Source of the DNA: Dimorphilus gyrociliatus
Taxonomy: Eukaryota; Animalia; Annelida
Assembly (NCBI GenBank): GCA_904063045.1
Contig: CAJFCJ010000005.1
Location: 3,218,165-3,282,164 of the forward strand
DNA length: 64,000 bases
Direction: 5' to 3'
Position numbers and translations under genes: made by a program. Below, piece after piece: positions 40,612-64,000 of the stretch. How positions within the stretch are numbered: the first letter of the stretch is position 1; every line of letters starts with the position of its first letter. The notes below the pieces were generated by a model. The model did not search any database and had not been told where the DNA came from. It saw only the letters and a program-made list of their open reading frames with translations.

Positions 40612-40926
40612 ATCTATCACTAGAAAAATGTAATGAAAAGCGTTTTTTTTGAAAAACTTGAGCAGTTATATCTGTTTGTCCTGAATTAAGTAGATATTAA
40701 AGTTAAATAACATGACTCATTTAACCTTTCGTACAGTTTGACTTGTTACGCCTTTACATTATTTATCTTTAAATATTAATCTATTTTCTATTAAAACTCA
40801 TATGATTTTATACGAAACCGTTTATTTTAAACGTTTAAATCCTCTACAGTTTATAACTTACGTAATAAACACTTAGGAACTATATATAAGTTGCATATAT
40901 ACATTATTTATATACAGTATATACAG

Positions 40927-40953
40927 TATATATATATATATATATATATATAT
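40927..40953. repeat. (TA)n microsatellite
   Basis: An uninterrupted TATATA run. Confidence 0.9.
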
Positions 40954-41009
40954 GCATTGAAATAATCGTCATTAAATAAACAAAAACACAAAAATATCTC
41001 ATTTTTCAT

Positions 41010-43250
41010 TTAATAGTTTAAATCCTTCAATATTTCTTCATTATATAACATCAACGATGAAATAGCGTCTTTATTACTAAATTTCTCGGCTGTTATATTA
41101 TCAATAGGCTTTCCTGTAACCTCTCTTATACAGGATATATAATAATTCAAAAATGTACGTAAACTAGCAACCAAATCATTGTGAATATAATCTTTTCGAT
41201 TCCTTGCGAAAAGTTCTTGAAATTCTCTTACAACTACATGCAATTGGACCTAAAAATAAAATGATTAATTGAGATTGAATAAAGAAGATTTACTTAAAAA
41301 AAGACATAGTTTAAATAGTTATAAACACCTTCCGAAAGACGTTAATTGATGAAATATAATCGAAGAGATCGTGACAAATTTTGAAGTTATCTTCAACACA
41401 ACTTACAATAGTTCGAATATGATTTTCGCTTACTGAAAAAACGATTAGATTAATATTTCAAATTAATGTTAAGTATTGTTAATAAAAACGGTATCTTACG
41501 AGATCGTCTTGCCATTTCCACATCGCAGTAACAGGCTTCCTTTGGAAACGTGCATACATACAGTATTATATTTTATATATATATATATTTAAAGAGAATG
41601 ATTTAATAATACTTGAAGAAAAATACTTACTTCGTAAATATCGTAGAAAAGTCTTACAATTAATTTAAATATTTCCCATTTTGGAAAAATCTTCAAATAA
41701 TATTAATAAATTGTATTATTAATATTCAATTAGTTAGATTTAAGGTAGCAAACCTGTTCAACTAAACTCCATTTTTTATCGAGAATTGTAATTCCACTAA
41801 AGAATACTTCGAATGAATCTGTTGCAAAACGTTGTTCGTGGAACCATTCCATTAGGACAATAATTAATTGTCTTAAACGATATTCGCTTTGTGAACATTC
41901 CAACATTCGATTTAAAAACTCTAAATAGATATCATCGTGAAAGAGACCAACGCTATTATTATCGTTCTTTCGATGTTTCATCACTTCGAAATGTACCTAA
42001 AAAGAGAAAGTAGAATTTATTAAATATTACGATTTTATTAAACATTAAGATTACCTGCCAAATAATATCTAAATCCTTATCGGTATTGTTATTATTCAAT
42101 GCATCGGTAATCATACCACGAAGTTTAAGAAAAAAAAATGAACTTTCATGACCTTTTAAACGACCTACAAGCGCCAACAAATATTCAGGATTTGTTATAT
42201 TTCTTGACTGTAACAATAAAAAGAATTTCATTGATCTATTATCTAGTTAATATATTATTACCTCGGTATAATTTTCGAAATTCTTACTATTAATAGTTAA
42301 ATCATTTTCTCTGTCATATATAAAACATCTATCGCTTGAACTAAAATAGGCAAATTTGAATTTTGAACTTGAATCTTCCAATGTTCTGTGTAAACGAAAA
42401 AACGTAGAAACTTTTAATAAATTTCTTCTTTTTTTCAACTAAACTACCTTTTCTTCATTCTATTCAACCATAATCTATTAGTATGTATTACTGTTATTTG
42501 TATTTCTTCTAATTTATGCCTTTTATCAAATACGTAATTTTCACAGTGTAGTATATGATCTAATTCTAATTTTTCAAGTGTAAGATGTAATCTCTTTAAA
42601 CGACGTAATTTTAATAAATCTTTAAATGTATATATCTCAAGATCTCTTCTATAGAATGATCCATTTCTTTTGTCGTAATATTTTTCATATCTTCTACTTC
42701 TTCTATAAAGATTATCTTGAGAAATATCTTCTAAATTCATAATGGATAACTCTTCTAAATTTTTTAACTCTTCGCATATAATTTGAAATTTATCACTCTT
42801 TATAGGACTATACATAATTTCTAATTTAGTTAAAGATCTAAACAATTTACAAGTATTTCTCTTTAGGTCGAAAGTAGGCTTTATTGCAAACATCGAAAGC
42901 TTTCTTAGCGAACCTAAATTGATAAATTTCAATATGTCATCCAATGAATTAATATGTTTAAGATCACTTATACGAAAATCTTTGATCTTATACTTTTTAA
43001 AGAAACTAAGACTTTCAATATTTCTTATCTTTTTACAATTGATACTTAAACTTTTCAATTGAAATTTAATTGTAGCTAAATGTTTGATATCTTCATCAGT
43101 CATTTTTTTATTTAAACTAAGTAAAGATTCCATTATTTCTTGGCTTAGAGATAATGGTAGAGTACCAGAATTACCAAGCACTCTTTGAATATCACATAAA
43201 TTTTGTGAAATAAATTGAAGTGTTAGTTGTTTCAAAGATGAAAACGACAT
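41010..43250 (-). CDS. LRR + helical-repeat protein, ZYG-11/ZER1-like family, copy 4
   Basis: MSFSSLKQLTLQFI..TLPLSLSQEIM; LRRs; paralogous exons (IYLEFLNRMLECSQ, FLNYYISCIRE). Confidence 0.75.
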
Positions 43251-43870
43251 CTTTATTATCTGTAAATAAACTATTTCAATCTCTATGACATTGAAATTAC
43301 CCCAGACGGTCTGGAAACAAAAAAAAATATCTACCAAATTTTTTTTCTGTCAACGAGTCTTACAATGTGTTAAAGCGGATGTACAATATGCTCTGTGATA
43401 GAACTCAGAGCGACTTGACACATTTTATTGTATAGGAACGCAGAAAAAGCCGTTATCCGAACTCATTGGTCATTGACCGTTAAATTTACTAGTATAGTCA
43501 ATTTTTTTATTACGTATAAGCATATATTCAAATCTACATTTATGAGATATTCTATAAATATTACTAATACTAAAATAAGAACAAGTAGTTCATGTATCTC
43601 TTAATTGAAATGGATTTTTCGTTTTTTACAACAAAGTTATAATCTAATTGGTAATCAATTATATATATGAACATCTATATAATTATCAAATTAAGAAATC
43701 ATTTTACATCTATTTAGGTCAAAATACTGAAATTAAAAATTCATAAATAGGCTTTAATTTGTTTTAAAAGAAAATAATTTTATTAATTTATAATTATCTC
43801 TTTTGTTCTATTAAAGCAATAAAATGAAAAATATACCACTTTAATTTTAGTACAACGTAACTTTTACAAG

Positions 43871-44977
43871 ATGATCAAGATGTTTTTATACGTAATTTAC
43901 ATTCTACAATTGAAGTATTATTCTCATTCACTATCTAATCCGCTAGCTAAAACTACATTTGATGGTCTAATTCATGGCAGTCATGCTAGCATACTTTTTA
44001 AACTTTCAAATAGTAATACGCAATATTACGTATATTCTACTGACTATGAAGTTATATCAAGTAATTTTCCTACAAGTAAATCAATACTTAAAAAGGGAAG
44101 CGCAGCTTTTCTAAGTTTAGGAGAACGTAACAATTGTTTTGGTAGTGTGGGAGCATGTTCTAATGGTTTTACCTTTGCAATTTGGTTGAAATTTTACGAT
44201 TTTGCTATTCCACAACAAATTATATTTGAAAATGGTAATATTGCAAAAACCAATAAATTTTTTGTAATAATAAGCAAAATTGGAACAAAATATACTGTAT
44301 ATTGTTTAATAACTGATAAAGACGGACAGTTTATCTACGTTGAAGGTATTGTAAATTCTTTAGAATGGTTTCATTTGGCCATTACATTTGACAGATCTCG
44401 TAAAGAAGCATTTATGTATATAAATAGTATTGAAGTGAATAGATATATGTCGAATATTACACTATACAATTATATTGGTTCAGAAATAGGTTCTGTTAAA
44501 CTTCTTAAACATTTTACGGGCTATGTTGACGAGTTAGCATTTTGGGATAGACAATTATCTGGCGACGAAATAAAAAATCTCTATCTTTCATTTTTCAATA
44601 ACCATGATTGTATTACATTACATCCGACAATTAAAGAAAATGAATGTAAATATGTAACTGAATGGTTTGATAATTCAGAAGATACGTGCTTTTCACCCGA
44701 ACGATTAACTAATAAATTCTGTACTGGATTAGTTAGTGAAAATTTCCAGATAAAGATTGCCTATAAGGGAAATATTACAAAAGATATTTGCCAACAGCAA
44801 AATTTATTAATAAGTCGTTATGATAATTTATTTAGTGAATGTCTATTGAAAAGCGTTTCATTTGGAAATTCAAATTCATATTGTATCTATAATTGTCAAT
44901 GTAAATATCACTTTTGTCAATTAGTTTTCATACATAGTCGAAATGTTATGAATATATGTGAAATTATATTCATGTAA
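43871..44977 (+). CDS. Probably secreted LamG/concanavalin-A-like domain protein with a Cys-rich C-terminus, single exon
   Basis: Hydrophobic N-terminus; LSLG..NCFG....CSNGFTFAIWLK, WFHLAITFD, MYINS and FTGYVDELAFWDRQLSGDEIKNLY are LamG_3 motifs. Confidence 0.8.
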   Translation: MIKMFLYVIYILQLKYYSHSLSNPLAKTTFDGLIHGSHASILFKLSNSNTQYYVYSTDYEVISSNFPTSKSILKKGSAAFLSLGERNNCFGSVGACSNGFTFAIWLKFYDFAIPQQIIFENGNIAKTNKFFVIISKIGTKYTVYCLITDKDGQFIYVEGIVNSLEWFHLAITFDRSRKEAFMYINSIEVNRYMSNITLYNYIGSEIGSVKLLKHFTGYVDELAFWDRQLSGDEIKNLYLSFFNNHDCITLHPTIKENECKYVTEWFDNSEDTCFSPERLTNKFCTGLVSENFQIKIAYKGNITKDICQQQNLLISRYDNLFSECLLKSVSFGNSNSYCIYNCQCKYHFCQLVFIHSRNVMNICEIIFM

Positions 44978-45334
44978 TTAAATAGAATGATTCAATTAAA
45001 CGTTGCCCTTTTGAATTTATTATACTTTTTACTAAATGAAAAAGTAAAAACATGGTAAGAGCTGATGTAAACAGTTAAAGTTTGTTATTATTTTTACCTG
45101 TAAATAGGACACTTTTACTTGTTAGAGAACATTGACTTATTACTCACAAAAGACATTTACATTGACTAAAAATATATGCTTATTCTATTCATAAACAAAC
45201 TTGTGTAACCAACTTCATAACCACACAATCTTAAAAATACAATTTTACCAGTTTTCTTTGAACGATAAATCAGATTGTAAAAAACCCACATCGAACAACA
45301 ACTTACAACTAAACTTTTACCGGAATCGGTAAAA

Positions 45335-47395
45335 ATGTCGATTTTTAATTGTAATCTGTGTAAAAGTTTATTTAAATATCGATATTATCGAAATTTTTAC
45401 AAGTTTATTAGAAATTCAAATAGTGGCTCATCTATTTCTCTGGGTGCGCAAACTATTTTATCTGCAGCTCAACTCAATCATAAGGTTACCGATAAAGATT
45501 TGAACCTGCTTAATCAGTCTGGATCTAAATTGCAAAAATTCAGTATTAATCTAAACGGCATACAAAAACCTGAAAGTTTAAAATTCTTAAAAGATCATCC
45601 ACTGGAAAAACTTGAATTAAAAAATTTCGATGTTCTATATAATCTAAAAGATATTGAAGATTTTATAAATGTTGAAAATTTAACGGAACTTAATCTTACA
45701 TCGCTCTCCTTATCATTTAAATTGAATAGTTCAACATGCAGAAGATTAAAATCACTTAAAAAATTAAATTTGAACGATACAAGACTCGATGATGAAAATT
45801 TTACAATACTTTGTAAAGAATTACCAAATCTTCAAAATTTACAGCTTAAAGCATCGAAAATAAAAAATGAAAGTGTATTAATGGAATTGAAAAAATTACA
45901 AAGTTTACATTTCGACAATGGTTACAACTCTTTGAAACGTCTTCATAACATTCTAATAGAATTAAAAAACTTTAAAGAGCTGGTATTAACTGGAAAATCT
46001 GAAATAAACTTTGACGCTGTAAACAGAATCTTTTTTGAATCTAATTGGCATTTGGAGAAGCTTATTGTCAATGTAAAACACGGAAAATGGTTAGAATGTT
46101 TAAGTAAACGGTTAATTATTTTTTTCTTATTAAATTTTTATATACAGTATATTCTATCAACTTTAATAATATTTCATCATTTTAGAAATCTAAGCGTTGA
46201 AAAGCCTAATTTGAAATTTTGCTGTTTGTATTCTTCTCAAGGAATATTCCTATACGATGGAAAGAATATCATAAAATTCACTTCTGATGATCCTAATAAA
46301 TACGAACAGGTATTCAATTCTTATTTTCTATATGAAGAAAATGTTCTACGTCTAATAATACTGCATTTATTCAATAGATAAAGGAATTGAATGATCCTTT
46401 GTATGTCTTGAATCTAGCTCAACATTTAAAAGGATGTGGAGATTCTTTTATTGTTTATACTTTACAAAGAATGTTGGATTTAGCTGAAAAAGATGATTGG
46501 GACGATGAAAAATTGAATATAATTTGGAAGGTAAAACGTAAAGAAATGGCGATATATATATATTGAAATAATATTACATTCTCTTCACAAAAGATCATAT
46601 TTGCTATGGTTGATATAGAAAATCAAGATTCTACATGGATTTTAAATAATCCTTATTCAACAGATTATCTTAAATTAATTAATAGAATGGAAAACTATTC
46701 AAAGAATGACTTTTTTTGGATAAAAACAGTTGAATCTTGCTGCAGAATTCTCTATTCTTCTAGCATAAATTTCGGATTTAAACAATACTATTCCGAAGCA
46801 ATGAAAATAATCTGTAAGAAATGGGATTTACAAGATAAAGTAGGCCAGCTTATGATTTACTAAAATATTGTTATTGTTAGTTGTTTGTTTTTTGAATAGG
46901 TATTCAAGAAATATAAAATGTTTCGAGTGTACTTGAGATTTTTTATTGCTATAACTGAGGTAATAATATGATCTTATGAATATTCATTAATATTATATTT
47001 GTTTCTTCTATTCCAATATTTTTAGCAATTAAATCCAAAAAATTCCTCATTTTATACAGGTAAATATACATAAATACTGTATATATTTTCTAGAAAAGCA
47101 TACATTATTTGTATTGTATTACTTATTTAATTAAGATCTTGGTCAAGTAGAACTTTGCGTTCAAGAATTATTAAAAGTTCACGAATTACTATTTGAAAAA
47201 ATTGGAAAAGATAATTTTTTAGATAGAGCATCAATTTCTGAAACGCTTAGAGAAGTTAGAAAAATTGAACAATTGCTTTTCAATTGGAATATTCAAATTG
47301 AAGATGAACAATTACAAAATTGTAGAAAATCACTTGAAAATTATTTTAACACTTGTGTTTTAGATTATCTTAAAACTATTGAAAAATCAATATAA
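45335..47395 (+). CDS. LRR + helical-repeat protein, ZYG-11/ZER1-like family, copy 5 (divergent N-terminus)
   Basis: KVTDKDLNLL, LKFLKDHPLEKLEL, LKSLKKLNL, FFESNWHLEKL, exon 1 ending ..SKR|, and YLKLINRMENYSKNDFFWIK all match the paralogues. Confidence 0.75.
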
Positions 47396-47831
47396 GTATG
47401 GGTATTTTTGGATTAAAGTTTCATATAACCATACGCCTGGCTAAGAATTGGAATTCACTTTCTAATAACTGACCTCATTTTTTATTTGATTTCCAACGAA
47501 ATGTTTACGAATCAAATTAAAAAGTATGATTATTCGTCTATTGCTTATAGAATTTTGTATTAACCCTATTAAATGACATAAATTTATTAGCAGTAATAGT
47601 GTACTAGGTGGAAATATGTTTTAATATTTCACGGGCTTCTACTTTCGATTAGCAGGTAGAATATGATTCGTTTGCTAAATAATAAAACAAACATTCAAGT
47701 CAAGTGTTTGTTTGTAATTTAATATTGTTTTTATTAAGAATAGCAATGGACTTTGTCTACTTACTTAGATGAGTTTTCCCCGGAGAGTTAACTTCTCTAT
47801 ATCTATCTTTCATAGTTCGAATTTATTTTTT

Positions 47832-47975
47832 GTTAAGTAGATATTTGATAAGATTTTCAGATGCTTGAAAAAAATGAATAGTTTTTATCCAGAAGACACA
47901 AGGATTGACATTCTTCAATTATCATCTTAAACAATCGTCAATATTTTCTAATGGAGAATTGAAGAAATTTTCAAA
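47832..47975 (-). pseudogene. Possible decayed exon of the LRR/helical family
   Basis: Translates FENFFNSPLENIDDCLR**LKNVNPCVFWIKTIHFF, resembling WILNNPYSTDYLKLINRMENYSKNDFFWIKT of copy 5, with two in-frame stops. Confidence 0.3.
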
Positions 47976-48261
47976 ATTGAATTAAAATCTTAATAAAGCT
48001 CATAATTGATGAGTAGTGTCAAGAGCCCAGATTTAAGACGAAATTAAGACTAGATAAATGTCAATACGAAGAATGAAGAATAAGATACTAATCTAAAGAT
48101 TTCAAGAAAAGTGTCACTATCCAATAACCAATAATGTTCTTTGGTGTTTTTTTCTTTTGTGGAATCTAAGAGAAAGGATAAAAAGTAATATTTCTTTTAT
48201 TAGCTTCATTTATTACATTCATAAGAAAATGACATGAAAAGGGAAAGAATTGTAAAGAAGG

Positions 48262-49559
48262 TTAATTGTAATCGTAACTGAATAAATACTCCGGATAACA
48301 TTGGAGACCGTTGTACACGACATACTCCGATCCATTCCCAATTATACTATCAAAGGTCTTTTTATGATCCACATTTTCGCATGAAGTGTTCTTGCAGGTC
48401 TTGCAAGGAGGCGTTGTAAAAGATTTTCCTGCGTGTGACGTGGAATCATAAGCAACTCCTAGAAGAACTCTCGATAGAAACATATACCGAGGATTTTCTG
48501 AACCGGTGTAGTGATGGGAGAATTTTGGACTATGGGCGTGATAAATACCTTTTCCAAACCAACCAGAACTTGCGACTCGATTATCAAATCCTTTATTTGT
48601 AATTATAAGAGCTTTATTACGAGATGTACCATGAAATAAATACTTTTCATTAATTTCCAGCCTTAAATATTGTCGAAGAGTACTAGGAACCATCAAATCG
48701 ACGGCAGTTTCCCGAAGTTTTATTTTCTCTTTTGTCGAACGTTTTAGCAGGTTTTTACGTTCTGTTGTATAATTTGAAAAGATTTGCGGATTTTCTATCC
48801 TAGTTATCTCTCTAACTGTTATATTTGCATCTGATTCCTTACTTAGATCTTTCCAAGCTTTTAAGAAGAATTTTTCCATTTCACTATATTCAAAAAGAAG
48901 ATTATTGAAAAAATGATAAGAGTTTTTCAATTTTTCATACTTGAATAGATATCCTTCTTTGTTTTTCAAGAAGACAACTTTAGGTTTAGTCTCAAATATA
49001 TCATTCAAAGGACCATAAAAACAAGACCAGTTTTCAGGAGTTTCGTCACACATATCGATTTTCTCCTTTATGAAAAGGAGAAGAAACAGTTAGAGTTATC
49101 ACTCATAACAATAATGATATTATACCTTAATATTCCTGTCATAGTGAGAGTTCATAAGGGAATCTGTTCAAAAGTAAATTATGACAGGAAAAATTTGAAT
49201 AAAAGACTCATTATTGCTGTAAAAATTTAAATCAGTTACTATATCTATTACTTACGAGAAGTTTGTGGTCTGTCAAAAGACAAAGGCAGATTCTGTCTAT
49301 CTGTATCAAATGCTAATTAAAAAAAACTATCATCTTCTATGATAGTAACAGTAAATATAGTATATTATTTATACCTGGCGGATAGCTGTAATAATTTGCC
49401 AAAATTGGATTTTGTTTGTCTATAGAACCACTGAAAATGATTAAGAACATAAAGAATATAGTTTCACTTGTATTCTGGATTATATTACCTTGATCGATTG
49501 GTTCGTCTCGAATTTAGAGGAAATAAAAAGATTTTTGACATATTGAAATTAGAATTCAT
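48262..49559 (-). CDS. Small PARP-family ART with an H-Y-E triad; 5' exons uncertain and possibly extending to about 50.3 kb
   Basis: ITRIENPQIFSNY, NEKYLFHGT, GWFGKGIYHAHSPKFSHHYT, YMFLSRVLLG, FDSIIG, SEYVVY..QCYPEYL. Small phase-compatible exons lie upstream to ATG 49559. Confidence 0.88.
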
Positions 49560-51098
49560 TTGCAAAAATTTTCACTGCATCAAATTAACTAGTAAACAAT
49601 AAACCATGGTTATAAAGAAACATAATACGTAATGGTTATTATTAAGCAACTGTTCATAATTTGAGTAAGAATAATAAGTGGAATAGGGAAGAGCCTGCTT
49701 AACATTTTCGTATACCAGTTTAAAATGTTCTTGAATATTAATTAATTAAATTATATGCAGTTTATTATTAAGCTTCCAATATTTTCTCACTAAGTGATCT
49801 TAGCCTCTCTCTCTCTCTCTTTTCTGTGGAGAATTCAAAATGGAAGCTATTTAGTTAGAAACTGTATTTCTTTGAAGACAATATAAAAACAAATTAAATC
49901 GTATGTTAAATTGATAATTGAATGTTACATAATAATAATATTTATACTAACCGTACTCGATACGTATGGGATAAATAGCTAAGAGAAATAGATATAATAC
50001 ATATACATAACTCTCTTAGTTCAGCCGTTGCGTTTGGTACTGATGACGAAATTTTTAAATCATCTTTTGAGAGAAGTCTAGTTGAATTTGGAAATTTTAT
50101 TTGTAATCTTAACGGTTACGATGGATTTTTCACGTAGACGGAATAAAAATTAAAGGCTTTGTATTACGTCTATACACCCTTTTACTTTACAGTCGTATAT
50201 AGTTTCTGGGATGATAAGGATAATTCAGTAGGCTCTGTTCGATTTCGATATAGCTCTAGACGCTGCTCATACACATAATACAACAAAAAAGAAATATTAA
50301 ATTTAAAATGAAGAAAATGACATATTCTACATTTATAAGCATCTCTTATTCTGTTTCTTTGTTTCTCTCTTTTAGTATGTTTTAAAACGTATATTGTTGT
50401 TCATTAAATATGAATCTCTTCTTATATAATCTTATCCTAATACAAGAGATAAGATATATGACGTCATTTAAAAATTGATGGAATGGTTGTTCACCGATAA
50501 AAACAATAACCGTATTTAAAGGAATATATAAAGTATAAATAAATTGAATTTTGTATCTGACCAGCGTATCATCTTACCCAATCGATTAAAAACATATAGA
50601 AATCTTATTTTCTTTACTGTGATTTATTTAAGATATTCACCAAATTAAAAACGGCTAATGGTCAATGTATAATCAGTTAAAATTTATCTTTATCAGTAAA
50701 AAATCTCTATTTAATATCGTAAAACTCTGCATTTATAGTATTACGCGTGCGCAGTGGATTCTGATTATTATCTAGAGATAGAAGCCTATTAGTTACTTAT
50801 ACCGAGATGAAAGTGAAATCGATCGCATAGCCCTTAGGACAAGAATTATAATATTATATATTAATATTGTATTATCAAACCTTGTTTTATCTTTATCAAT
50901 GATATGCTGATATGAGTACTAAAACCATTAAAGAAACAAATAAGAGATTCCAAATCAAAGATGTTATATATTTATTATTAGGTACTTTTTATTGATAATT
51001 TTTGATAGTCACGTGTTTGTATCTGTGGCCTATTATATAAAAAATATTATCTATATAAGTCCTTTGAGACGTACTAATTATTAAAGTATGCAGCAGCA

Positions 51099-52265
51099 AT
51101 GAAATTAAATGAGCACATTGTAAAAGGGATTGAAAAAGATATTTCTCCTTTCTATTATTACGATTTAAAGGTTTTAGAGGAGACTTTAATGACTGTGAAG
51201 AATGAATCTTCAAAATATAATTACAAAGTACATTATGCTGTAAAAGCAAATTTTAATCCCAAAATTATGCGTTTAATTTCCAATTATGGCTTTGGAGCTG
51301 ATTGCGTAAGTGGTAATGAAATAATTCATGCTTTAAAAATGGGATTTTCAAGTAATGACATCGTTTTGGCTGGTGTTGGAAAAACTGATAGAGAAATTCG
51401 TTTGGCATTGGAAAATAATATATTTTGTCTGAATGTTGAATCTTTGGAAGAATTGAAAATAATTAATAATATTGCTCTTGATATGGGAAAATTTGCTCCT
51501 GTAGCTCTTCGATTAAATCCTAATATTAATGCAAAAACACACCATTATATTACAACTGGTTTGTCAGAAAATAAGTTTGGAATACCTTTAACAATGTTAG
51601 ATAACATTTTGGATGAAATACAAACAATGGATAATATTTATTTGAAAGGATTACATTTTCATATTGGTTCTCAGATAACAGACTTAACCGTGTATGAAGA
51701 TCTTTGTAAGCAGGTTAATGAAATACAAATTGACTTGGAAAAGAGAAACATTAACTTGGATCACATAAACGTTGGTGGTGGATTGGGGATTAATTACAAT
51801 AATCCAGATGATAGTGAGGCTTATAATGTTTCTAATTATTTTGCATTATTTGATAAATATTTGGATAAAAGACCAAACCAAAGTTTACACTTTGAAATTG
51901 GTCGTTCGATTGTTGGAACTTGTGGATCGTTAATTACAAAAGTTCTATTCGTAAAAAAAGGTATACAAACAGATTTTGTGGTAGTCGATGCCGGAATGAC
52001 AGAACTCATTCGTCCAGCACTATATCAATCATATCATCAAATAAATAATCTAAGTTCACTTGATGAAAGTTGTAGATACCATGTAGTAGGTCCAATTTGC
52101 GAGAGTTCCGATTGCTTTGGTAAGAATATTATTTTACCAAAGACAAGAAGAGGAGATATAATTGCAATTCGTAGTGCAGGAGCCTACGGACAAGTGATGT
52201 CCTCCAGATATAATCTTAGGAGTACAGCTCCAGCTCTCTATAGTGATGGTACGTGGGAAAATTAA
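51099..52265 (+). CDS. lysA: Diaminopimelate decarboxylase, bacterial type, intronless (HGT candidate)
   Basis: 388 aa with PFYYYD, HYAVKAN (PLP Lys), GADCVSGNE, GVGKT, NVESLEEL, TTGLSENKFG, HFHIGSQI, NVGGGLG, EIGRSIV, DAGMTELIRPALY, VVGPICESSD and AGAYG..MSSRYN. Confidence 0.95.
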   Translation: MKLNEHIVKGIEKDISPFYYYDLKVLEETLMTVKNESSKYNYKVHYAVKANFNPKIMRLISNYGFGADCVSGNEIIHALKMGFSSNDIVLAGVGKTDREIRLALENNIFCLNVESLEELKIINNIALDMGKFAPVALRLNPNINAKTHHYITTGLSENKFGIPLTMLDNILDEIQTMDNIYLKGLHFHIGSQITDLTVYEDLCKQVNEIQIDLEKRNINLDHINVGGGLGINYNNPDDSEAYNVSNYFALFDKYLDKRPNQSLHFEIGRSIVGTCGSLITKVLFVKKGIQTDFVVVDAGMTELIRPALYQSYHQINNLSSLDESCRYHVVGPICESSDCFGKNIILPKTRRGDIIAIRSAGAYGQVMSSRYNLRSTAPALYSDGTWEN

Positions 52266-52905
52266 AATAACGAATATTTTTTATTTCTAGTTTGTATTGT
52301 TTGGTTTTGTTTTATAAATTGTAAACTCAATTCTTTGCAGTATTATATTAATATTTAATGCAAAATATACTGAATAATCTACTGCATATATTTAAAATTT
52401 GTCACAACAAAACTCTTATTAATTTAATAGTAATTAGTTGTTAATAAAATGAAACTATGCCAGGATATACCGTATGAAAGTAACACACGTAGATTACGTA
52501 CGGTTATTACAGAGATATCATTGACCCAAGGAATTGAACGATTAAGATAAGATAGAAATATTACTCATATATTAGTATCAATAGTCTAATATTGAATCAG
52601 ATCTCATAAATATCAATATCAAATCAGAGTAGCCGAGAATATAAAACAACATCTGTTTTAGATTTTTACAGTTTTACAAGAAATATTCTATATTTACTTT
52701 TGGTAAAAGTAATATTGCAGTTTTACAGTTATAATTCTTGCAAAAGGGGCCTTAAAATTATACACAGTACAAAAACAATAGGCTCTTATGTTTTCTTGGC
52801 TTGTTATTGGTTCAGATTAATGCATTATAAAAAATTCTATTTATTTATTTAAATATAGTCTATAAATGGGCAAAATTGCAATCACAAGCACTTTCACTCT
52901 ACAAC

Positions 52906-53655
52906 ATGAATAAGTTGAAAACGAAAATATCCATAATAATTTTGATGATAATTATTCATTCGTCTAATACCTCAAATACTTGTTCATTAAGGAAAGTTGG
53001 TTTTGATGACAAACAACTATTTCCAGACTCAATTTTCACGGATAAAGATCATTTTTTAACTCCAGCAAGGGCAGCAAGAATGAAACCAACTGCAGGTGTT
53101 TGGTTAGCTTCTAGAGTACCTGGAAGTTGGATTCAAGCAGACCTATGTTAGAAGTAAAATTTCATACAATATAATATTACTTTAAAATGTTGTACAAATT
53201 GTAGTGCGTATCTATGATATATATGGAATAGATATGAAAGGTGGTGATGCAACTAGGTATACTACCAATTTTCATCTCATGTATGGACTCTCCACATCTT
53301 CATTAGTATATTTTAAAGAAGGAAGCAGTAAGAAGGTCTCGTCTATACTATAAATAATTTTTATGTATAATTGTAATTTGAATTTTGGCATTGTTGTAGG
53401 TTTTTAAGGGAAATATTGCATCTAACTGGAACCAATTAATTCATGTGACATTCCCGCAAAAAATTGTAACAAGATATATTAGAATACTTACAAGATCTGG
53501 TAGCCTCTATGCTGGAATTGCTTTCGAACCCTACGGATGCCGTAAGTTATCTTTAATAGATAATACTTACAATTTTTATCATATAAACATATTTTCATTT
53601 TAATTATATTAAAAAAGACAAGACAAACGCATTTCAACTATCTAACTATTTTTAA
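52906..53655 (+). CDS. Secreted single F5/8 type C (discoidin) domain protein; last exon tentative
   Basis: Signal-like KISIIILMIIIHSS; ARAARM..GVW..SWIQADL|..IYGIDMKG..YTTNFHLMYG..|VFKGN..TRYIRI..FEPYGC. Confidence 0.8.
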
Positions 53656-54359
53656 TACTAACAAACAACAAGTCAGTCTTTCTATAACACAGTTACTACA
53701 CTCTATAGTGAATAATAAGCTACTAATAAATAAACTATAAAGATTCACTTATATTCAGTATAAATTACTAACTACTGACGTATGATATTCCACTTAGGTG
53801 ACGAAAATAACTAAGAAAAAATCAATTTTTATACATTAAAGGTTAAATTATTTTATCTGTTAGGCCTATATTTTGACGTTATTAAATTAACCTCATTTAG
53901 GGTGAAAAATAACATCAATACCATTGCCAAACTGTATTAGAATTGAGAAGTTTTAAATGTTTTTATTATTATATAATCAACGTATACAAAGTAAGCACAA
54001 GAGTTTCATATATATATATATATCAAATACATGTATAAATATCTTCGACAATTGAAGACAAAAGCGAAATGAGTATATTTCTTTCAAAAAAAGAAAAAGA
54101 AAGAAAGAAAGAAAACCCGATAATCTCCCAAATCTCTGTCGTAATTATCCCAATTGGGTCAAATGTTACAAAAAAAATAATTCAGAGATTCCACTCAAAG
54201 AGAAGTATTTTTTTTAAGTGTTGCAGTTTTTTTCATCGTAGAGTGTGAATCGTTTAATGGACAATTAAATAATTCAAGAGTATTGAATAAAATAGATTCA
54301 GGATCCAAATGAAAATAATTCCTTCTTATTCAGCAATAATGGTAATATTTATAATTAGC

Positions 54360-56489
54360 TTAATTTTTATAGCCGTTAAATCTGTTTGTATACCGAAAGA
54401 GAAAGTTTGAATCTGAAGATAGCCATTGTTCGTGGGATACCAACTGTGGCGACTTTTCAGCTTGAATGCTATTTGATTGCTGCGTGTGATCCGGTTCTGG
54501 TGTTGCATTAGACTGTGGAGCATAGCTTGGCTCCTCAGTATAATTTGGTTCTTCTTGTGTATAGTAGTTTGCCTCTTGGATATAATTTGCTTCTGGCTCT
54601 AAATCTGCTTCAGGAAGGTTACTCGACTCTTGTGGAAAATTTGGCATTGAAGTTGAATACGGCCCTTGTGCGTAATCTATTTCGTATGTATAAGTTAATT
54701 CTTGCATGTAATTAGGACCTGGAGTTGAATGCAATTCAGATGGGGTCGTTTCTTGCTCCGAATCTGTTTCTTGACCAAAGGTCACGTAATTAAAGAAATC
54801 TGGTGTTTGTATGCGCAACATTTCTTGTTCGTGATTGAACGTCAGTTCTTGGAAATTGTGCTGTGGTGTGGAAAGCAACTCTCGAGGAAAACCGAAATCG
54901 TCGGTGACGTTTAGCTCTTGCGAAATAATTGATTCTTCTGCGGATAGTGCTTCTGATGATAAATTCGGAATAATTAGAGATTCAAGACTACGAGAATTGG
55001 AAAAATCATGTTCGCCAATTTTCGTTCGTTGGGATATTTGCATATCGGTAAACTCATTCGTTTTCCTCTTTCTACAGCCAGCGTCTTTTGATGTAGAAGA
55101 GTCCCACTGTGATTCAATAAATATATTTGCAGAATTTGATGATGTTGAAGAACGAGTATTGTCATCAGCATCATAATTATCATATTCATCATATTCATCA
55201 TAATCATTATTATCATTATTATCATTATTATCATTATTATCATTATTATCATTATTATCATCATTATCATCATTATCATCACTATCATCATTATCGTCAT
55301 TATCGTCATGATCATCATCGTCGTCGTCGTCGTCATCATGACCATAATCAGTACGATTATCACCATCATCATTATCATTGTCAATATCATCATGATCATC
55401 ATCACTACAATCGCTCGAGTTGGCAGAGTACGACGTATCAGAATATGTAGGGGGCGAAAAAGACATTGTTGAGTTATCGTAAAAGTCAAGCACAGCTATT
55501 GTCTCTGAAAAGACTCTTCCAGTATGCGTCTGTGGTGAAAGAGTGTTAATACTATTTTCGTCCGACTCAATTGAAGGTTGAGCAGAATACTCTGGAGAGT
55601 TGCGTTTATGATGGGAAATTTCTTTTTTCGAAACATGATATTGCCCATTATAGAAACTTCGAGTGTTGATTTGAGATAAAGCCGATCGCTTTCCAGTAGT
55701 TTTACTCTTTTCAACAGTTTCCTTTTTTTTAGTATTTGATTGTCTCCTATACTGCGATTCTTGGTTTGTATTGGAGTTTTCTTTCATTTTGTAAAAATCG
55801 TTACAAAAGTCGTCTAAACGATTTCCCATTACTTTCAATTCATCGTAGAGTCTACTATTCTGCTCTATCAACTTATTATTCTGGTTGATGATAACGTTAT
55901 AGTTCAAGTCTTCCATGGAATTAGAAAATACGCATCTTCGGTTAGAACTTTCACCTTTTGGCTGTATATATAGCTTTTGTACGCCATTAATGGTCAAATT
56001 TAAAATTTGAAGAGAAAATGGCGAAATTTTTGTCGATGGGGTATTACGAGGTCTAAATATTACGGGACTATCTTCACTCAATTCTTTTCTAACAAGTTTC
56101 CAATTAGATTTAAGGATATTTTCCAAAATTTCTACGGTTCTAGACAAAGCCGCTTTCGAACCAACAGGAAGTGAGCAAATAGGAAACAATCTAACAAAAA
56201 TTCTACCACACTGACGAATATGTGTCGATAGATTGTCACAATGGTCATTTTCCCTTTTTAAAGAACAGAGAATCCTACTGAATCTAGTACTTAGGGATAG
56301 AGCTGTATAATTAGTAGACAAAAAGGAGCACCTCTTACAAAAAACCACAAAGCAAACGCCTCTTGTTTTACAGGTGAAGTCATCGTTGATGTTGACAGTA
56401 ACTCTACCATCACTTGAACACCATCTTGAACAGCAAACCAAATGAACGCACAAAGGACATTTAGCGATTGAGCACTTTCGAACACCCAT
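54360..56489 (-). CDS. Intronless 709-aa protein: degenerate Penelope-type GIY-YIG/Cys-rich N-terminal domain, predicted coiled coil, and long acidic low-complexity tail
   Basis: Uninterrupted 2.1-kb ORF. The N-terminus KCPLC..INDDFTCKTRGVCFVVFCKRCSFLSTNYTALSLSTRF..LSTHI follows the PLE endonuclease pattern CxxC..I...FTC.T.NVIY.I.CxxC..YIG.T...L..RF..H. No reverse transcriptase is visible nearby. Confidence 0.7.
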   Translation of the reverse strand: MGVRKCSIAKCPLCVHLVCCSRWCSSDGRVTVNINDDFTCKTRGVCFVVFCKRCSFLSTNYTALSLSTRFSRILCSLKRENDHCDNLSTHIRQCGRIFVRLFPICSLPVGSKAALSRTVEILENILKSNWKLVRKELSEDSPVIFRPRNTPSTKISPFSLQILNLTINGVQKLYIQPKGESSNRRCVFSNSMEDLNYNVIINQNNKLIEQNSRLYDELKVMGNRLDDFCNDFYKMKENSNTNQESQYRRQSNTKKKETVEKSKTTGKRSALSQINTRSFYNGQYHVSKKEISHHKRNSPEYSAQPSIESDENSINTLSPQTHTGRVFSETIAVLDFYDNSTMSFSPPTYSDTSYSANSSDCSDDDHDDIDNDNDDGDNRTDYGHDDDDDDDDDHDDNDDNDDSDDNDDNDDNNDNNDNNDNNDNNDNNDYDEYDEYDNYDADDNTRSSTSSNSANIFIESQWDSSTSKDAGCRKRKTNEFTDMQISQRTKIGEHDFSNSRSLESLIIPNLSSEALSAEESIISQELNVTDDFGFPRELLSTPQHNFQELTFNHEQEMLRIQTPDFFNYVTFGQETDSEQETTPSELHSTPGPNYMQELTYTYEIDYAQGPYSTSMPNFPQESSNLPEADLEPEANYIQEANYYTQEEPNYTEEPSYAPQSNATPEPDHTQQSNSIQAEKSPQLVSHEQWLSSDSNFLFRYTNRFNGYKN
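55161..55405 (-). repeat. Coding low-complexity trinucleotide/9-bp repeat tract (Asp/Asn-rich: DDN, DNN, YDE)
   Basis: Arrays of tcattatta, tcattatca and tcg on the + strand. Confidence 0.9.
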
Positions 56490-56538
56490 AAGAGAATGAA
56501 TATCGTTTTTTCATCAACTTGAGAAATTCAAATAATCG

Positions 56539-56576
56539 AATGAGAGAATTGGAATAACTAGCACCCCTTTTATATA
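56539..56576 (-). promoter_or_regulatory. TATA box + initiator upstream of the 709-aa ORF
   Basis: Minus strand TATATAAAAGGGG (56576-56564), followed about 30 nt later by TCATT (56543-56539), about 50 nt before ATG 56489. Confidence 0.55.
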
Positions 56577-58165
56577 GGATTTTTGAGGAGAAGCTCAAGG
56601 GATGAGTAAATACTTTTTGAGAAGTATTCAAGGGAAAAAACACATGTTTACAGTAACTTTTCAATTTCTTAATTAGCTTAAAAGTAATTGAAAGTTTTAA
56701 AGACATAGTCTATTTTGGTCGAAATTAAAAATCATTATCCTTTTACTGGTCGATTAAAAAATGGCTTCGCAAACAACGTTAAAAAATGATTAAAGCTAAA
56801 AAATTGAGCGTTGTGACCTTAGAATACTTCAACTTTAAAAAAGGACACTTTTTTTATTCGCTTTTTTTAGTATAACATTCAAATTTCGATATTATAGTTT
56901 AAATATTATGTTAATATGTTATATATTTAATGAATTATTACTATAATTATTAATATTACAATTAAATTTTATCTGATTATTGAATAATTTCATCATTAAA
57001 TTAGCAAAATAGTTAAAATCTATCATAAAAATTCTTCTCGACTCCTTTCTATATTTCTTTTAACAATAATCAATTAATACTAAATTCATCTTATTATCAT
57101 TAACACTATAGTAGATAATGTTATCTCTCTTATGACCTTGACACTTTGGTATTAAATTCATTTTTCTATCATTGAAATGAACCATCGTCTTTTACGTACT
57201 CATCCCACCTTTTATAGATTGATTTCTATTTGTTCAAATACCTCAAATACTATTTAAAATAACGATTCTATAGACTTTTAAGACAGTAATAGAATGATAA
57301 TTGTTTAGAAATTATCAATTTTTATATAGTTTACTAGTAAAAGTAAAAAACAAAAACCATTTGACAAATATTCTATAGTAAAGCCAATAAACAATATAGT
57401 TTTATTTATTTTATAATTTTTTTGATGAGTGTGTACAAATGTTAAAATCATAAATAACAATCTGTTCTAATTTACGTATGATTGGTAATGTTTGTGATCT
57501 TTTAAAATCATCCTATAATCGACACAATTACAAGACAGGTTGAATAAGAGTCTAAACCTTTCTTTCTTTTTAAGTGTTGTTAATGCCAATTTATACTGAT
57601 TTATAATAATTAATGCTTCTATTTTTGACTAATTATTAAAATATAACTCTTTTAAAGTCACTCTATTAAATGAATTATTAGATAAAGGTAATGGAATGGT
57701 ACAAAAGACGAAAGAATTCTCTGCTATTGAAATTACTCATGTAAACATTATTAGCTTTAGAATATATATAGAATATCTTGCTATTAAATTCAATTAAAAT
57801 TATGAATTACTAATATAGAAATCGTATTCTACAGATACTTTAAGCAAAAATGAACCTTCTTGAGAAAGCTTCTTATACCTTTCTCTATTATTTTTTTTAT
57901 AGAATAGAGAATTGTTAAAGGTGAAACTTTCACCTTATGCTAATTTTAAAAGATCAAACAAATTTGTACTTGCCCTTAACGAATAAACAATTTATGGAAT
58001 TAACATTGTATCAAATATCAAATACTTGACTATGCTCTAAAGATGGCGTTAGTTAAAGGTGATCTTTTACCTTGAAAGAATAAAGATAAAAATATAAAAG
58101 GCGTCCTTTTTTTTCCCTCCTGTTATATAGATACATGAATATTATTAAGTATATTACAACTGTAC

Positions 58166-58187
58166 CTCTCTCTCTCTCTCTCTCTCT
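58166..58187. repeat. (CT)n microsatellite
   Basis: ctctctctctctctctctctct. Confidence 0.9.
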
Positions 58188-59325
58188 GTCTACCTGTCTC
58201 TAATTGAAATAGAATATGTCGCTTTGAATGTTTTGTTTTTTGTTATTTTGTCCGTAATAGTAACTCTATTAATCGGATTTGCATAAACTAAACTATTTAT
58301 AAACCTTTAGATATAACCATCTACAATACTTATATATAGAAAAAAAGAATAGAATGGTAAATGTATACTTTTTATCCAAAAAAACTAAAAAAATCAAAAC
58401 AGGTGTCGAGAGTTATTCATTGCAACTTTTTCTTCATATTTTCGCCTACATAAAGCATTCCTATCTTTTTACTCACCACAATTATACTCAATACAAATAT
58501 TCAAATTAGATTTCTACTAGATTAAACATGAATTTCATTATATTATTATAGTTATATAATTCAAAGATATCCCGCAAAGAAATTAAGTAAAGTATTCAAT
58601 TTCAATGAATTTTCTAATTTATTTATTAAAAATTTGAATATTTCAGATTATTAATAAACTTTTTATATAATAACTTTTTAATAAAGTGAATTGAATATAT
58701 TTTCATTTAATATCTACTTTTTAAAGAATTCTATATAAATGATAGAAAAGTGGGAAAGTATTAGAGAGATGATATATGAAAAAAGAAAAGTCTCTATGAT
58801 CAAAAGAGAATCAATCAATCAATTAATAATTACCTGTCAAAGATTCTACTATCGATAATTTCCTAACAGACTATTGCTTAATACTGTACTTTAACATTTC
58901 TATAATATTTTTTTATTTATAATTTACTTTTAAATGTTTTTCAATAAGATATTTTTTATCTTATTTGATCAGAGACTTTTTTATTAAAGAAAACAAAAAC
59001 AACTACTTTTTTTCCACAGTTAAACTTTGTTATGTTGTTCTAGTTTTATCTATAATTCTACGAGTAGACTGTAACAACTTTATGATTCATTCTTAGAATG
59101 TAAACAAAAGCTTTGAAAAAGATGTAGCAAATCCGTCTATTTGTAATTTTAGAAGGCTTTTAAATAATATACTTGCTTGGCCACGTTTTTCGTAACAAAT
59201 ATCTATAAATATATTGTAGACAGTATTGTTTAACACTTCTTTCTCGTCCAAAGATTATTTTCGTATGTAAAATTTTCTAATGGATACAATTTAGTAAGAT
59301 TCAATGAACTATGAATATTTAGGCA

Positions 59326-62300
59326 ATGGCTCGAAAATTATTCACTAAAGAAGGTTTGTATTATTCTTTTACTAATCGTTTTATTACTACTTATCAATTA
59401 AGGCTTATATCTTTACTTAGAGAGAGATGTACCTTATCTTCTAGTTCAGAATATAAACGATACAATGAAAGATGAACATTTAAAATCTTTGTTATGTCGT
59501 AACGAACAAGTTTGCGGAGGCAATTTAAGTTTCTACCAAAGAGACAATACTACTTTAACGATTAAATACGATTCGGTCGAAAGTAATAAAGAGAATATTT
59601 TCCTTTAATTTTATAGTATTACTATTTATTAATCATCTTTTTTCCTTTCTTGATTGCGTCAAAAAGCTACCTTGAATGTATTGATAAAGTGCTCGAATGG
59701 TTTGAATTTTCAAGGTCAAATTCTTATTATTCATGAAAAAACAAATAAAATGATATTAGTACAGCGGGAATATGATGAATTTGATGAAGATGAATTGATA
59801 ATGATTTTCGGCATACCAATAGATGAGGGTGGTGGTACAAACTTTGGTATAAAAGATCTCTATAGAATAGATAAGAAACATTTAATTATTCAATATATCC
59901 ATGAAAACTGTTAGTATTTTTCCCCGTAGTATTTTGCTAAATGAATGTATAAAAACTCTTTTTAGTTGCGAGTAAACATTTGAAAAAGAGAATGGAAACT
60001 GATGATGAAACTGGAGAAAAATTTCTAATTTATCCACCATCTTTTATTGGAATATGTGATATTCTATGCGAAAGAACAATACAATTATCATATGCAAATT
60101 TGTTTAGTGAGAAAAAATTAGCTAAAACTTTAAAGTTGATTAAATCAGATATAAACCTTATCGAATATAATTATTGGCCCAGAAGAGACATTGGTTTTAT
60201 TAGTCTTAAAAGCTTTGCTGGTTAGGATAAATAAATATCTTATTAAATTATCATTAATTAACAATCAATCGTTTATCGTATTTTAGATGTTAAGTTTCTC
60301 CTTGAAAGAAAAGAAATAAAACTTCGTAATTCAACATTAACGTTTGAAAAATTCAACTTTCTCGATTTCATAAGCTATAAACTTGACGACTTTAAAGACA
60401 AACTTCCTGTTACTTCTGATAAACAATTTGAAAAGAAAAGATTATCCAACATTGATCCTATATATTATACTTATAAATCGGAATTTCATCAATTCGTTAT
60501 CAATTCGACAACTTTTCAAAGCTATTTATCCGAAGAGTTGAAAAGATTCAACTGTAAATTAGCTTTTGATCGAGATAAACCGACGATTGTTGTTTCTTTA
60601 GCTGATGGTAACGATAATGAAAAGATAACTAATGAATTGAATATTCATTTTAAACAATTAACAATTAAATATAGAAAAATTGATAAACTTATCTTTAACA
60701 ATTTAAAATCGGACAAAGTAACAATTAACTACTGCAAAGATACTTCAAAGGCTCAAATAATTGGAAAGTTGGATGACGTTGCACTAATTGTAAAACAAAT
60801 AGAGGATAACATAAAAGAGAACTTTAATAATATTGAATTATTTATCGATGTTAAAGATGAACTCTGTAAAAGATATCTTATCGATAATCTCTTCCTAAAG
60901 CAAATTCAAACTAAATATCCGCAAGTCCAGCTAATCGAAACGAAAAAACCATCAGTAGTTGGTATTTCAGCACCGTCTGCTTGTCATAAACGTATAGAAT
61001 TCGAAATTTTACATCGTTTAGCAAATATTCACTTTACGACAATAAATACTCCTACAGATATACTTAATTTGTGGTCAAATGAATTTATAATTAAAGATGA
61101 ACTTACTAAGAAGTTAGTTCTAGTTGAAAATGCAAAAAATTTCAAGCTATCCGTAACGAAACGTTCATTCATAAACATCATCGCAAATTCGGAGGAAACT
61201 CTAAAAGACATAGAGAATTTGATCAATTCAATTGCCTTTTCTTTTTCAATACCTATTCCAAAGAATATTGGTGAAAGATCAGTAAATTGGTTGGATTTTA
61301 AAAAGGACATTGTCAGATCATTTCAGCCATTGAAACTTACTGAAAATGAATCAGATGTTAATATTATAGCATTTCGAAGTAGCTGTCAAGAAATTTTAGA
61401 TTATATTATTGAAAATTTCAAAATTTTAAACTTGGACTTTGACGAATTTAAAATCCGGCGGTGTATAAAAGGAGATGAATATGAGGATAGTGAGGAGGAT
61501 CTATACGATGTTCACGATGATTCGTTAATCTATTCGTTTATAAATGATAATTTTACTGATCAAGATTCTGAATCAGACAGCGAAAGGGAAGATGAAGAAA
61601 TCGAAAGCAAAGATGAAAATTCTTCTATAAAAACGTTAACGAAAACTTTTTACTGGAAAGAGCATACCTATCCATTAAATAGTAAAAATATGGAAGTGGT
61701 CAATTTGAAGAAGGATATCGAACGACAACATAAAGTTCTAATTGAGAACTTTAACGTAAGAACAATACTTTTAAAGTGTTCAAATGAAAAAACTTGCACA
61801 GTCAGAATAACGAAGAATTGTATTAGTCGGTCATATTCAACAATAATTCTTATCTTTACCAGTTTTGATGATAATTTAAAAAAGAAACTTACCGAATATC
61901 TTGATAAAAATATTAATAATTACTTTAAAGACTTTTCAAAATGTAACAATTTCTATCAAATTCAAGATCAAAATCAGAAGAAACTATACTTTCTATTAAA
62001 CTATTCCAATTCTTCAACAACTTTACTATCCGAACAACTTAAATTATGCTTTAACAGAGTGAATTATGATAGAATAACAATATTACCAAATTTCCATTCA
62101 ACACCATATACATTTTATAAATTTGACGAAATCAACTTATGCATGTTTGAAACAATAGCTGAAATGACTTTAAAGTTATTACCGGAAGAAATTGATATTC
62201 AAATTAAGAGTGTAGCTGAAGAGAATATAACTTTAGCCGTTATGTCTTCGTCACTTTATGGTCTTGTTTATCAACAGGATAAGTTTAAAAAATTAAATCA

Positions 62301-64000
62301 TTGCGTTCCCAAAAAATCTTCTATATTCAACATAATTAAGGGATCAATTACAAAGCAGAAAGCGGATGTTATTGCTAATATATCTAACAAACAAAATTTG
62401 ATTTCAACGCCTATTTCTAAGAAGTTAATAAAGAGGACAAAAGAATTAAAAAACCGTCTGATAAATCATCAAAATGGTTGTTATAATTTTCATAAAAAGC
62501 ATGAAGTACTATTAACAAAAGGATTTGGTTTAAACTGCAAGTTTATATTCCATTCCGCTTTGAAACAGTACTCGGGTAAAGGGGATGAAAAGGTAAGATC
62601 TCTACGAGAATCTTTCAATTTTGATGTAAGAAAGAAACTCTATCTATTTCCTTTTTGAACAGAATTTAATAGATCTGCTTGTTTTATGCTTTGATAAAAT
62701 GAGATATAAGAATTCAAAGAGTATTTGTTTCCCGTCATTTTTCGAAGATGATTTAAACTATCCACCGGAAGTGGTTGCAAGATGTATAGAAGAAATAGGT
62801 TCAAGTTATGGTAAGGAAATGGGTCTTGAAAATATAACGCTTGTAATCTCAAATATTGATATTTTTGAGGTACGTAGTTCTGAAATAAGAAACTAATTGA
62901 TCATTTAATACTAACTATTAGTTATTTAATTAGAAATTTGAGGATTACTTTTACGGTAAACCTTGGAAATATGAATCTGGAAAGTTTAAACTTTATGGAA
63001 ATATACAAATTAATTTGTCTACTAAAACTCTATCAGACACAAAAGCTCAAGCTATAATATGTCCAATTGAATCCTCTCTAGCTCTGGGTGATAATCCCAT
63101 AACCAAAGATCTTGTAGAAAAATATAGTCATTTACAAGATAAAATCAATAAAATAGCCTGTAATGGTGACGTATTTTCCTATAGATTTAATGAAATGAAT
63201 AATACATTATTAATCTTTTGTAAAATTACAAATGGAGGCATAAAAAATCAAATTTTTAAAACTTTATCATATGTTGATGAATTAAATATCAGTTCAATCG
63301 CAATTCCAACAATCAAAGGTTATAATATATTTAAATACGTTTGCTGGACAAACTTTTTAACTTGATTTTTAATTTTTCTTCTCTTTTCTTTATATAGAAA
63401 ACTTTCAAATTAGTTTGTCAGAGTATGAAATATTTTTAATGATTATTGAATCGTACTTTTATGGAATAAAACCTAAAAATCTTCGAAATATTACAATATT
63501 TATGAAAGAAAATGAAAGAAACATTTATAAAGATACTCTTTTAAAAAAGTGTAGTACGTGTTATTATGTAATAATTTAATTGCTTAAATATTAATGTAGT
63601 TCTATTATAGATAATCTAAATTACGTAAATATTTCTGGTTTTAAACAATCGAATATAGTAAAAGCATTTCATGATTTTACATCTGGATTAGAATCTCTTG
63701 TTACTGCATCATCGATGAATTTACCTTACAAATACGATTCCCTTAACGTTAGTTGAATATTGAATGAATAAATTTGCATATTTAATTAATATTTTAATTT
63801 TATTTCAATTAGCCAATCATTAAATCTACTTGCGTATTTTTTCCTGACATAATAACTCAAGTTTATGGAAACGAATTATTCTTTTTTGGCTTTGAAAAGA
63901 GTGTTAAAAACTTAAAAAAGTCTCTTGACTGTATTATTAAACATCACGAACAGAAGAGAATACAAAAAGAACATAGGAATTTATTGCAAGATTGCGTAAC
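59326..64000 (+). CDS. PARP14-like multidomain protein C (RRM-like repeats, KH-like region, two macrodomains); partial, runs off the right edge
   Basis: MARKLFTKE|ERDVPYLLVQNIND..; RRM-like DEDELIMIF..EGGG; macrodomain IIKGSITKQKADVIAN..LTKGFGLNCKFIFH; second macrodomain QAIICPI..SSIAIPTI; last visible exon GNELFFFGFEKSVKNLKKSLDCIIKHHEQKRIQKEHRNLLQDCV. Confidence 0.8.

Follow-up and report, generated by a model that had tools for sequence, protein, structure and literature searches.

The window analysed here, a stretch of 64,000 nt from the annelid Dimorphilus gyrociliatus, has the character of an AT-rich, compact animal genome, its introns measuring about 57-92 nt. It contains the gene of a protein, P0001, whose parts are listed in Table 1. 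A preliminary description of the locus had seen in it an intact and intronless frame, with its own TATA box and initiator and with no reverse transcriptase (RT) nearby. The frame is indeed intact, and its 709 aa far exceed the 161 aa reached at most in 500 shuffles. Its GC3 (0.30, vs 0.18-0.28 in eight other ORFs of the window) and its codon index (0.66, vs 0.66-0.76 in the same eight) place it at the edge of the range of the window's ORFs. The neighbours, at 0.6 and 2.5 kb, are spliced host genes; the macro-domain gene among the listed features is presumably PARP14-like.

Table 1. Features of the P0001 gene and of its surroundings (window positions; residues numbered as in P0001).
Feature	Position	Strand	Basis or remark
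P0001, 709-aa ORF	54360..56489	(-)	open-frame translation, no internal stop, no intron seen
PLE-type GIY-YIG pseudonuclease domain (predicted), aa 1-130	56100..56489	(-)	profile, structure, alignment
Predicted zinc site 1, CX4CxxC...C (C6, C11, C14, C40), Neptune/Nematis/Naiad linker motif	56370..56474	(-)	invariant 6/6
Predicted zinc site 2, C51xxC54...H90xxxC94	56208..56339	(-)	invariant 6/6
Family-specific alternating hydrophobic stretch, aa 158-173	55971..56018	(-)	alignments; absent from PLEs
Predicted coiled coil, aa 197-235	55785..55901	(-)	heptad pattern and shuffles
Tail motif common to P0001 and P0003, aa 324-335	55485..55520	(-)	pairwise comparison
9-nt tandem repeat, Asp/Asn tract	55158..55402	(-)	repeat search; not in P0003
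RKRK, NLS-like, aa 473-476	55062..55073	(-)	pattern
WLSSxSNF motif near terminus, also in P0003, aa 689-696	54402..54425	(-)	pairwise E 0.002
TATA box candidate, TATAAAAG	56567..56574	(-)	sequence; starts at 56574
Initiator candidate, TCATTC	56538..56543	(-)	31 nt after TATA
AATAAA, candidate poly(A) signal	53962..53967	(-)	near end of high-depth X2 contig
Spliced convergent gene, discoidin-like by eye, no Pfam match	52622-53800	(+)	X2 joints
Macro-domain gene	from ~59037		X2 and sequence

Two sequencing runs, X1 and X2, matched the window. X2 has no library record; because it contains splice joints in the neighbouring genes (GT..AG and CT..AC, 15 of the 22 joints being listed), we take it to be RNA-derived. 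Two of its contigs span 54121-55162 and 55412-56786 with 0 differences and 0 joints, figures to be read with the possibility that X2 comes from the same source material as the window. The piece between them (55163-55411), which holds the D/N repeat, was passed over by contig matching, and the joint-free statement covers the remainder of the ORF: the claim of an intronless gene stands for that remainder, and an intron is possible in the piece passed over. Around P0001, the flanking X2 pieces are all short or low-depth. X1, with a share of 0.05, has two short contigs in the gene, one coding (2 differences in 168 letters) and one mostly in the 3' UTR (6 differences and 4 gaps in 239 letters), which is not enough material to build on. 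The P0001 gene is transcribed, as seen in one RNA-type run whose contigs cover it. Candidates for both promoter elements are present as described, and counting both strands of the 64 kb, pairs like theirs occur at only four sites (five matches); since the X2 contig extends past the TATA box to 56786, the start site is a candidate one. An upstream out-of-frame ATG at 56514 (-) opens a frame of 17 codons (56461-56514) that overlaps the P0001 start, with a possible damping effect on translation of the gene. From 54220 onwards, another X2 contig follows part of the 3' UTR and continues with 206 unrelated letters, which makes this piece either a short repeat or a stretch common to another transcript.

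The window has other features of its own. An intronless, bacterial-type diaminopimelate decarboxylase gene, lysA, lies at 51099-52265 (+) (TIGR01048, 394 bits for a cut-off of 297.9) and shares an RNA-type contig with spliced host exons; the animal has likely acquired this lysine-biosynthesis gene by horizontal transfer and transcribes it. An intronless gene for a 134-aa glyoxalase/VOC protein at 30013-30417 (-), bacterial-looking by eye, is possibly a second gene transfer. Macro-domain and PARP genes, which we take to be PARP14-like, are locally expanded (13763-29584, 48262-49053, and 59037-64000), and about five diverged leucine-rich-repeat genes, presumably ZYG11/ZER1-like and alike at their N-termini, stand in tandem at 32206-46381. 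A single 6.1-kb X2 contig (46000-52248) joins a spliced plus-strand gene, a spliced minus-strand PARP gene, and lysA, which suggests overlapping transcripts.

The preliminary description placed in the first 125 residues or so of P0001 the scaffold of the GIY-YIG endonuclease of Penelope-like elements (PLEs). Pfam and NCBIfam hold no family matching P0001 or its head, the Pfam GIY-YIG models included; a PDB sequence search with P0001 returned chance rows only, word-based homologue searches found nothing, and no relatives of P0001 were found in metagenome contigs. The ESM Atlas gave a feature match of 0.95 to clusters partly labelled GIY-YIG (19% of members) and, for aa 1-134, structure matches with TM 0.67-0.74 to RT/HTH_animal/GIY-YIG clusters; aa 140-345 had no usable match there. 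Searching 1.84e9 representatives with aa 1-240, phmmer found 22 matches: five RT-less relatives, 16 PLE-type endonucleases (13 with Pfam GIY-YIG and four with RVT_1, at E <= 0.01), and one artefact. The latter, P0007, matched through tandem repeats and was excluded from the family. The profile of the family matches that of the PLE endonucleases at 98.5% (E 2.2e-15, aa 2-111). A PLE HMM scores the six members, P0001 included, at 40.8-67.6 bits (reversed sequences at most 7.3, 500 shuffles of each at most 7.4) and a family HMM built without P0001 recovers every one of the 16 PLE domains, with 24.8-64.6 bits where shuffles reach no more than 12.3, for a PLE comparison set that was selected by likeness to P0001. 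The head is 20-27.5% identical to PLE endonucleases, 27.5% being the maximum among those found.

Structure models agree with this assignment. AlphaFold2 reached a pLDDT of 86.8 with a 22-row alignment that includes the PLE rows, and 35.8 from the single sequence. The top Foldseek rows are I-TevI, Hpy188I, and T4 EndoII, none at E <= 0.001. Among 48,161 chains compared by VIA-align, I-TevI comes top (Z 7.0, a middling value, rmsd 2.2 over 81 residues), tied with EndoII (6.4). Residues 43-127 of the model lie on residues 2-83 of the I-TevI chain, and if the ends are ungapped, V45-C46-F47 then falls on GIY and V119 on Glu75, in agreement with the sequence alignment. Profile and model alike thus identify residues 1-130 of P0001 as a PLE GIY-YIG endonuclease domain of the two-zinc-motif type, and the scaffold proposed at the outset, motifs included, is borne out.

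The tyrosines of both signature strands have a functional role in GIY-YIG nucleases. In the available text of PMC8557442, PLE endonucleases are defined by a CCHH motif together with the catalytic R, H, E, and N, to which Neptune, Nematis, and Naiad add a CX2-5CxxC linker; that text assigns the zinc motifs no established role, and proposes that the linker motif aids in recognising (TA)n targets. Aligned with the 16 PLE endonucleases, P0001 has V45-C46-F47 for GIY and S58-T59-N60 for YIG, the same VCF and STN that were read from the sequence alone, and I73 for the His of RxxxH. Its other motifs are FTC40, R69-F70, and H90. A first His had been reported lost from the domain, and so it is; yet that His belongs to the catalytic set, and zinc motif 2 is complete as CxxC...HxxxC (CCHC), enclosing the dead GIY and YIG strands and the position of the lost His. 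The HxxxC form occurs in nine of the 16 PLE endonucleases (P0008, P0011-P0016, P0018, and P0022) and is thus a CCHC variant of the 'universal' CCHH.

The six heads together keep the predicted ligands in 48 of 48 alignment cells, and the catalytic residues in 3 of 36, vs 117/128 and 90/93 in the PLE endonucleases; six catalytic columns were counted (two Tyr plus R, H, E, and N), that of Asn being loosely aligned. Across the family the Arg is retained in two members and the His, Glu, and Asn in none; the GIY Tyr persists in one of six, the YIG Tyr and Gly in none. P0001 itself retains R69 only, one of the two cases of the Arg. Its E120 lies one residue off the Glu column and is replaced by S, K, N, N, and W in the other five. 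All eight ligand columns are invariant, vs 5 of the 125 other ungapped columns (Fisher p 7e-10), and these five are M1, W23, D27, P103, and I104. Under a simple neutral model of decay to 41% identity, an open frame survived in 0 of 3000 runs and the full set of ligands in 1 of 3000. Such sequence patterns argue for purifying selection on the family at the protein level. With 48 of 48 ligands kept and only 3 of 36 catalytic positions, they point to a pseudonuclease that was domesticated long ago and whose family diversified afterwards.

The family consists of P0001 and the five relatives P0003, P0004, P0005, P0006, and P0009 (281-478 aa), which align from their first residues; its size is at least six, since an alignment-based search recovered no more than two of the rows put into it. 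All six members start at the zinc motif, and no Pfam RT was found in any of them. P0004 and P0006 are unannotated proteins of D. gyrociliatus. CAD5122298.1 and CAD5126942.1 (DgyrCDS14951), uncharacterised proteins of this species, belong to the family; over the head their identity to P0001 is 32% and 24%, and their tails are shorter and unrelated to its own. Pairwise identity among the six heads ranges from 17.5 to 42.7%. P0003, 41% identical to P0001 over aa 1-234 and with tail motifs in common, is a candidate orthologue. In the trees, which are unrooted and in which long branches may inflate the clade, the family lies on one side of a branch with support of 100/99 (all rows) or 100/100 (minus four long rows). 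The net charge of the head is +11 in P0001 and +1 to +16 in the family, P0009 being near neutral (+1). None of the five relatives shares its 90% cluster with another protein; together with the uniform X2 contigs, this is an indirect sign of single copy.

Beyond the head, an alternating hydrophobic stretch specific to the family is likely a beta hairpin, judging from its pattern. The coiled coil that follows had been predicted before and reappears here: I, L, V, M, F, Y, or N fills 13 of its 14 a/d positions, its coiled-coil score was equalled by 4 of 300 shuffles, and a signal above shuffles is present in five of six members, the exception being P0005 (64/300). The RKRK patch was also found as described, and NLS-like basic patches, by pattern, occur in four of the six tails. 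Of the acidic tail, put at about 450 aa, aa 351-445 carry a net charge of -47 and aa 446-709 one of -27, but aa 251-350 are neutral. Tails vary widely among members and do not resemble PLE proteins; only P0001 has the D/N tract. The motif at aa 324-335 ends in what we take to be a SUMO-interacting-motif-like (SIM-like) pattern, present in three of six members. P0001 and P0003 have tail motifs in common, and therefore parts of the disordered tail are probably constrained as well.

Around the gene we looked for the marks of a mobile element. When 25 PLE proteins were compared with the window by tblastn, only the endonuclease region (56025-56504) was matched, apart from a weak match at E 0.027, so that the earlier remark on the missing RT holds. 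No long repeats, be they pseudo-LTRs or tandem or inverted copies, were found in 49000-64000, and no Rfam ribozyme in 46000-64000; a bare hammerhead-core-like string at 59999 is far from P0001. The sequence of P0001 thus lacks the RT, the repeats, and the ribozyme of an EN+ Penelope-like retroelement, and there is around it no giant telomeric retroelement, Athena RT, or ribozyme as in a Terminon.

P0001 is very probably a member of a domesticated PLE pseudonuclease family. The case made in the preliminary description, for a domesticated gene of PLE-endonuclease origin that has lost its catalytic residues, is supported by profile and structure, by transcription, and by diverged relatives showing the same residue pattern, and no outcome that it had named as refuting came up in the comparisons made here; that description was of a single gene, and the six-member family and the completeness of both zinc motifs had escaped it. 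Given such a family, a role as DNA-binding regulator is reasonably probable. Composition and ancestry suggest that the protein binds DNA, is nuclear, and forms dimers. We would put slightly better than even confidence in the whole of the reading, i.e., a transcribed, RT-less PLE pseudonuclease of a family of at least six members, domesticated long ago and acting as a dimeric nuclear DNA-binding adaptor.

Several other readings have to be set against this one. The pseudonuclease could act in transposon defence, as a dominant-negative decoy on PLE target DNA or on element RNA or protein that recruits silencing. Members diverge fast (18-43% identity) and three of six carry the SIM-like motif, and SUMO is linked to silencing. 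The linker zinc motif proposed for (TA)n target recognition (PMC8557442, available text) would suit a decoy, and the donor class is present at a low level in a TE-poor genome: Penelope-like repeats make up 0.44% of the D. gyrociliatus assembly and TEs 4.87% of the genome, according to the accessible parts of PMC7854359 and its supplement. Yet no PLE endonuclease found exceeds 27.5% identity to the head, so that mimicry of a current PLE is doubtful, and we consider a decoy unlikely. Reuse of the zinc-stabilised fold to bind protein or RNA, not DNA, would account for a poorly conserved surface, with few invariant residues besides the ligands, and for head charges that vary as widely as they do in the family; it is also unlikely, given that most heads are basic, that four of the six tails bear NLS-like patches, and that the ancestor binds DNA. 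An active nuclease with a site rearranged around R69 and E120 could invoke the retained Arg and a Glu beside its column, but both Tyr, the YIG Gly, the His, and the Asn are gone, E120 is not conserved in the other five, and R69 is kept in two of six, which leaves this reading very improbable.

It might also be argued that P0001 never left the mobile world, either as an accessory ORF moved in trans, in the manner of a non-autonomous PLE or a Terminon, or as a decaying TE fragment joined to low-complexity sequence. Terminons do carry stand-alone endonucleases with both zinc motifs (PMC8557442, available text), rotifer Penelope ORFs are described as capturing long in-frame Asn-rich segments (PMC3846280, available text), and P0001 has no introns seen among spliced neighbours. 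Against this, RT remnant, long terminal repeat, and ribozyme are all absent within the ranges searched, spliced host genes adjoin on both sides, the relatives are sole occupants of their clusters, near-identical expressed copies are contradicted by long unbroken contigs with 0 differences, and neutral decay does not reproduce the pattern; we regard a mobile or decaying element as quite improbable. An endogenous viral gene, the alternative offered in the preliminary description, would agree with an intronless gene with a TATA box, and viral GIY-YIG proteins are given as the nearest outgroup of PLE endonucleases in the available part of PMC1564403. Relatives are nevertheless absent from IMG/VR contigs, phage records gave one chance row (E 6), no viral genes were recognised among the 10 window ORFs scanned, and the available text of PMC8557442 states that homing endonucleases with these zinc motifs were not found. 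A viral origin is thus largely excluded, and we give it hardly any credence.

The domesticated pseudonuclease could have arisen in a few steps. A 5'-truncated PLE copy, reduced to the C-terminal endonuclease, would have acquired, at the linker zinc motif, a start codon from which reading continued into new sequence. Selection against cutting might then have removed catalysis while the zinc-stabilised fold was retained, and gene duplication and divergence would have produced the family. In the resulting protein, the basic head would bind DNA without cutting it, the coiled coil would join two heads, and the disordered tail, with its NLS-like patch, SIM-like motif, and acidic tract, may recruit chromatin or transcription factors. 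Chances are about even that this is the first PLE-derived domesticated family, one of lineage-specific dimeric chromatin or transcription regulators with a double-zinc DNA-binding head that possibly guard a compact, TE-poor annelid genome against PLEs.

Hosts are well known to have domesticated transposases, gag, env, and LINE proteins. In the titles and abstract openings searched, those of open-access papers, we found no domesticated or inactive PLE endonuclease and no such family. For Adineta vaga, Arkhipova et al. 2013 state in the available text (PMC3846280) that strong evidence for exaptation of Penelope ORFs was not seen. P0001 fits among domesticated TE proteins, a known kind, and it is the Penelope endonuclease as donor for which no literature report was found. 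A family in which both zinc motifs persist while the catalytic residues are gone sets structure apart from chemistry in PLE endonucleases; it also supplies a candidate for a new DNA-binding domain, along with a gene set open to testing in an animal that can be cultured and whose genome is compact.

Among known systems, the endonucleases of the EN+ PLEs Neptune, Nematis, and Naiad (cd10442; PMC8557442, available text) have in common with P0001 the CX2-5CxxC linker, the CxxC between the strands, the later His, and the fold. P0001 is unlike them in that the GIY-YIG signature and the catalytic His, Glu, and Asn are gone, that it has no RT, pseudo-LTR, or ribozyme, and that its domain begins at residue 1 of an ORF of host type and is followed by a family-specific segment, a coiled coil, and a disordered tail. 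The stand-alone GIY-YIG ORFs of Terminons are, like P0001, RT-free and endowed with both zinc motifs, and are described in the accessible parts of PMC8557442 and PMC6431247 as lying inside giant telomeric retroelements and carrying large insertions themselves; they are thought to aid integration. P0001, in contrast, has host genes around it and is without the catalytic residues. In its predicted layout, P0001 has a parallel in CENP-B, which has a DNA-binding head, a dimerisation region, and an acidic tail; domesticated TE proteins are often without catalysis, and the THAP and BED finger proteins are likewise domesticated transposon DNA-binding proteins. The CENP-B-related proteins, derived from pogo transposases, are an example of a TE enzyme kept by the host for DNA binding (PMC4231638, available text). 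The donors of the CENP-B, THAP, and BED proteins are DDE transposases, whereas the donor of P0001 is the GIY-YIG endonuclease of a retroelement.
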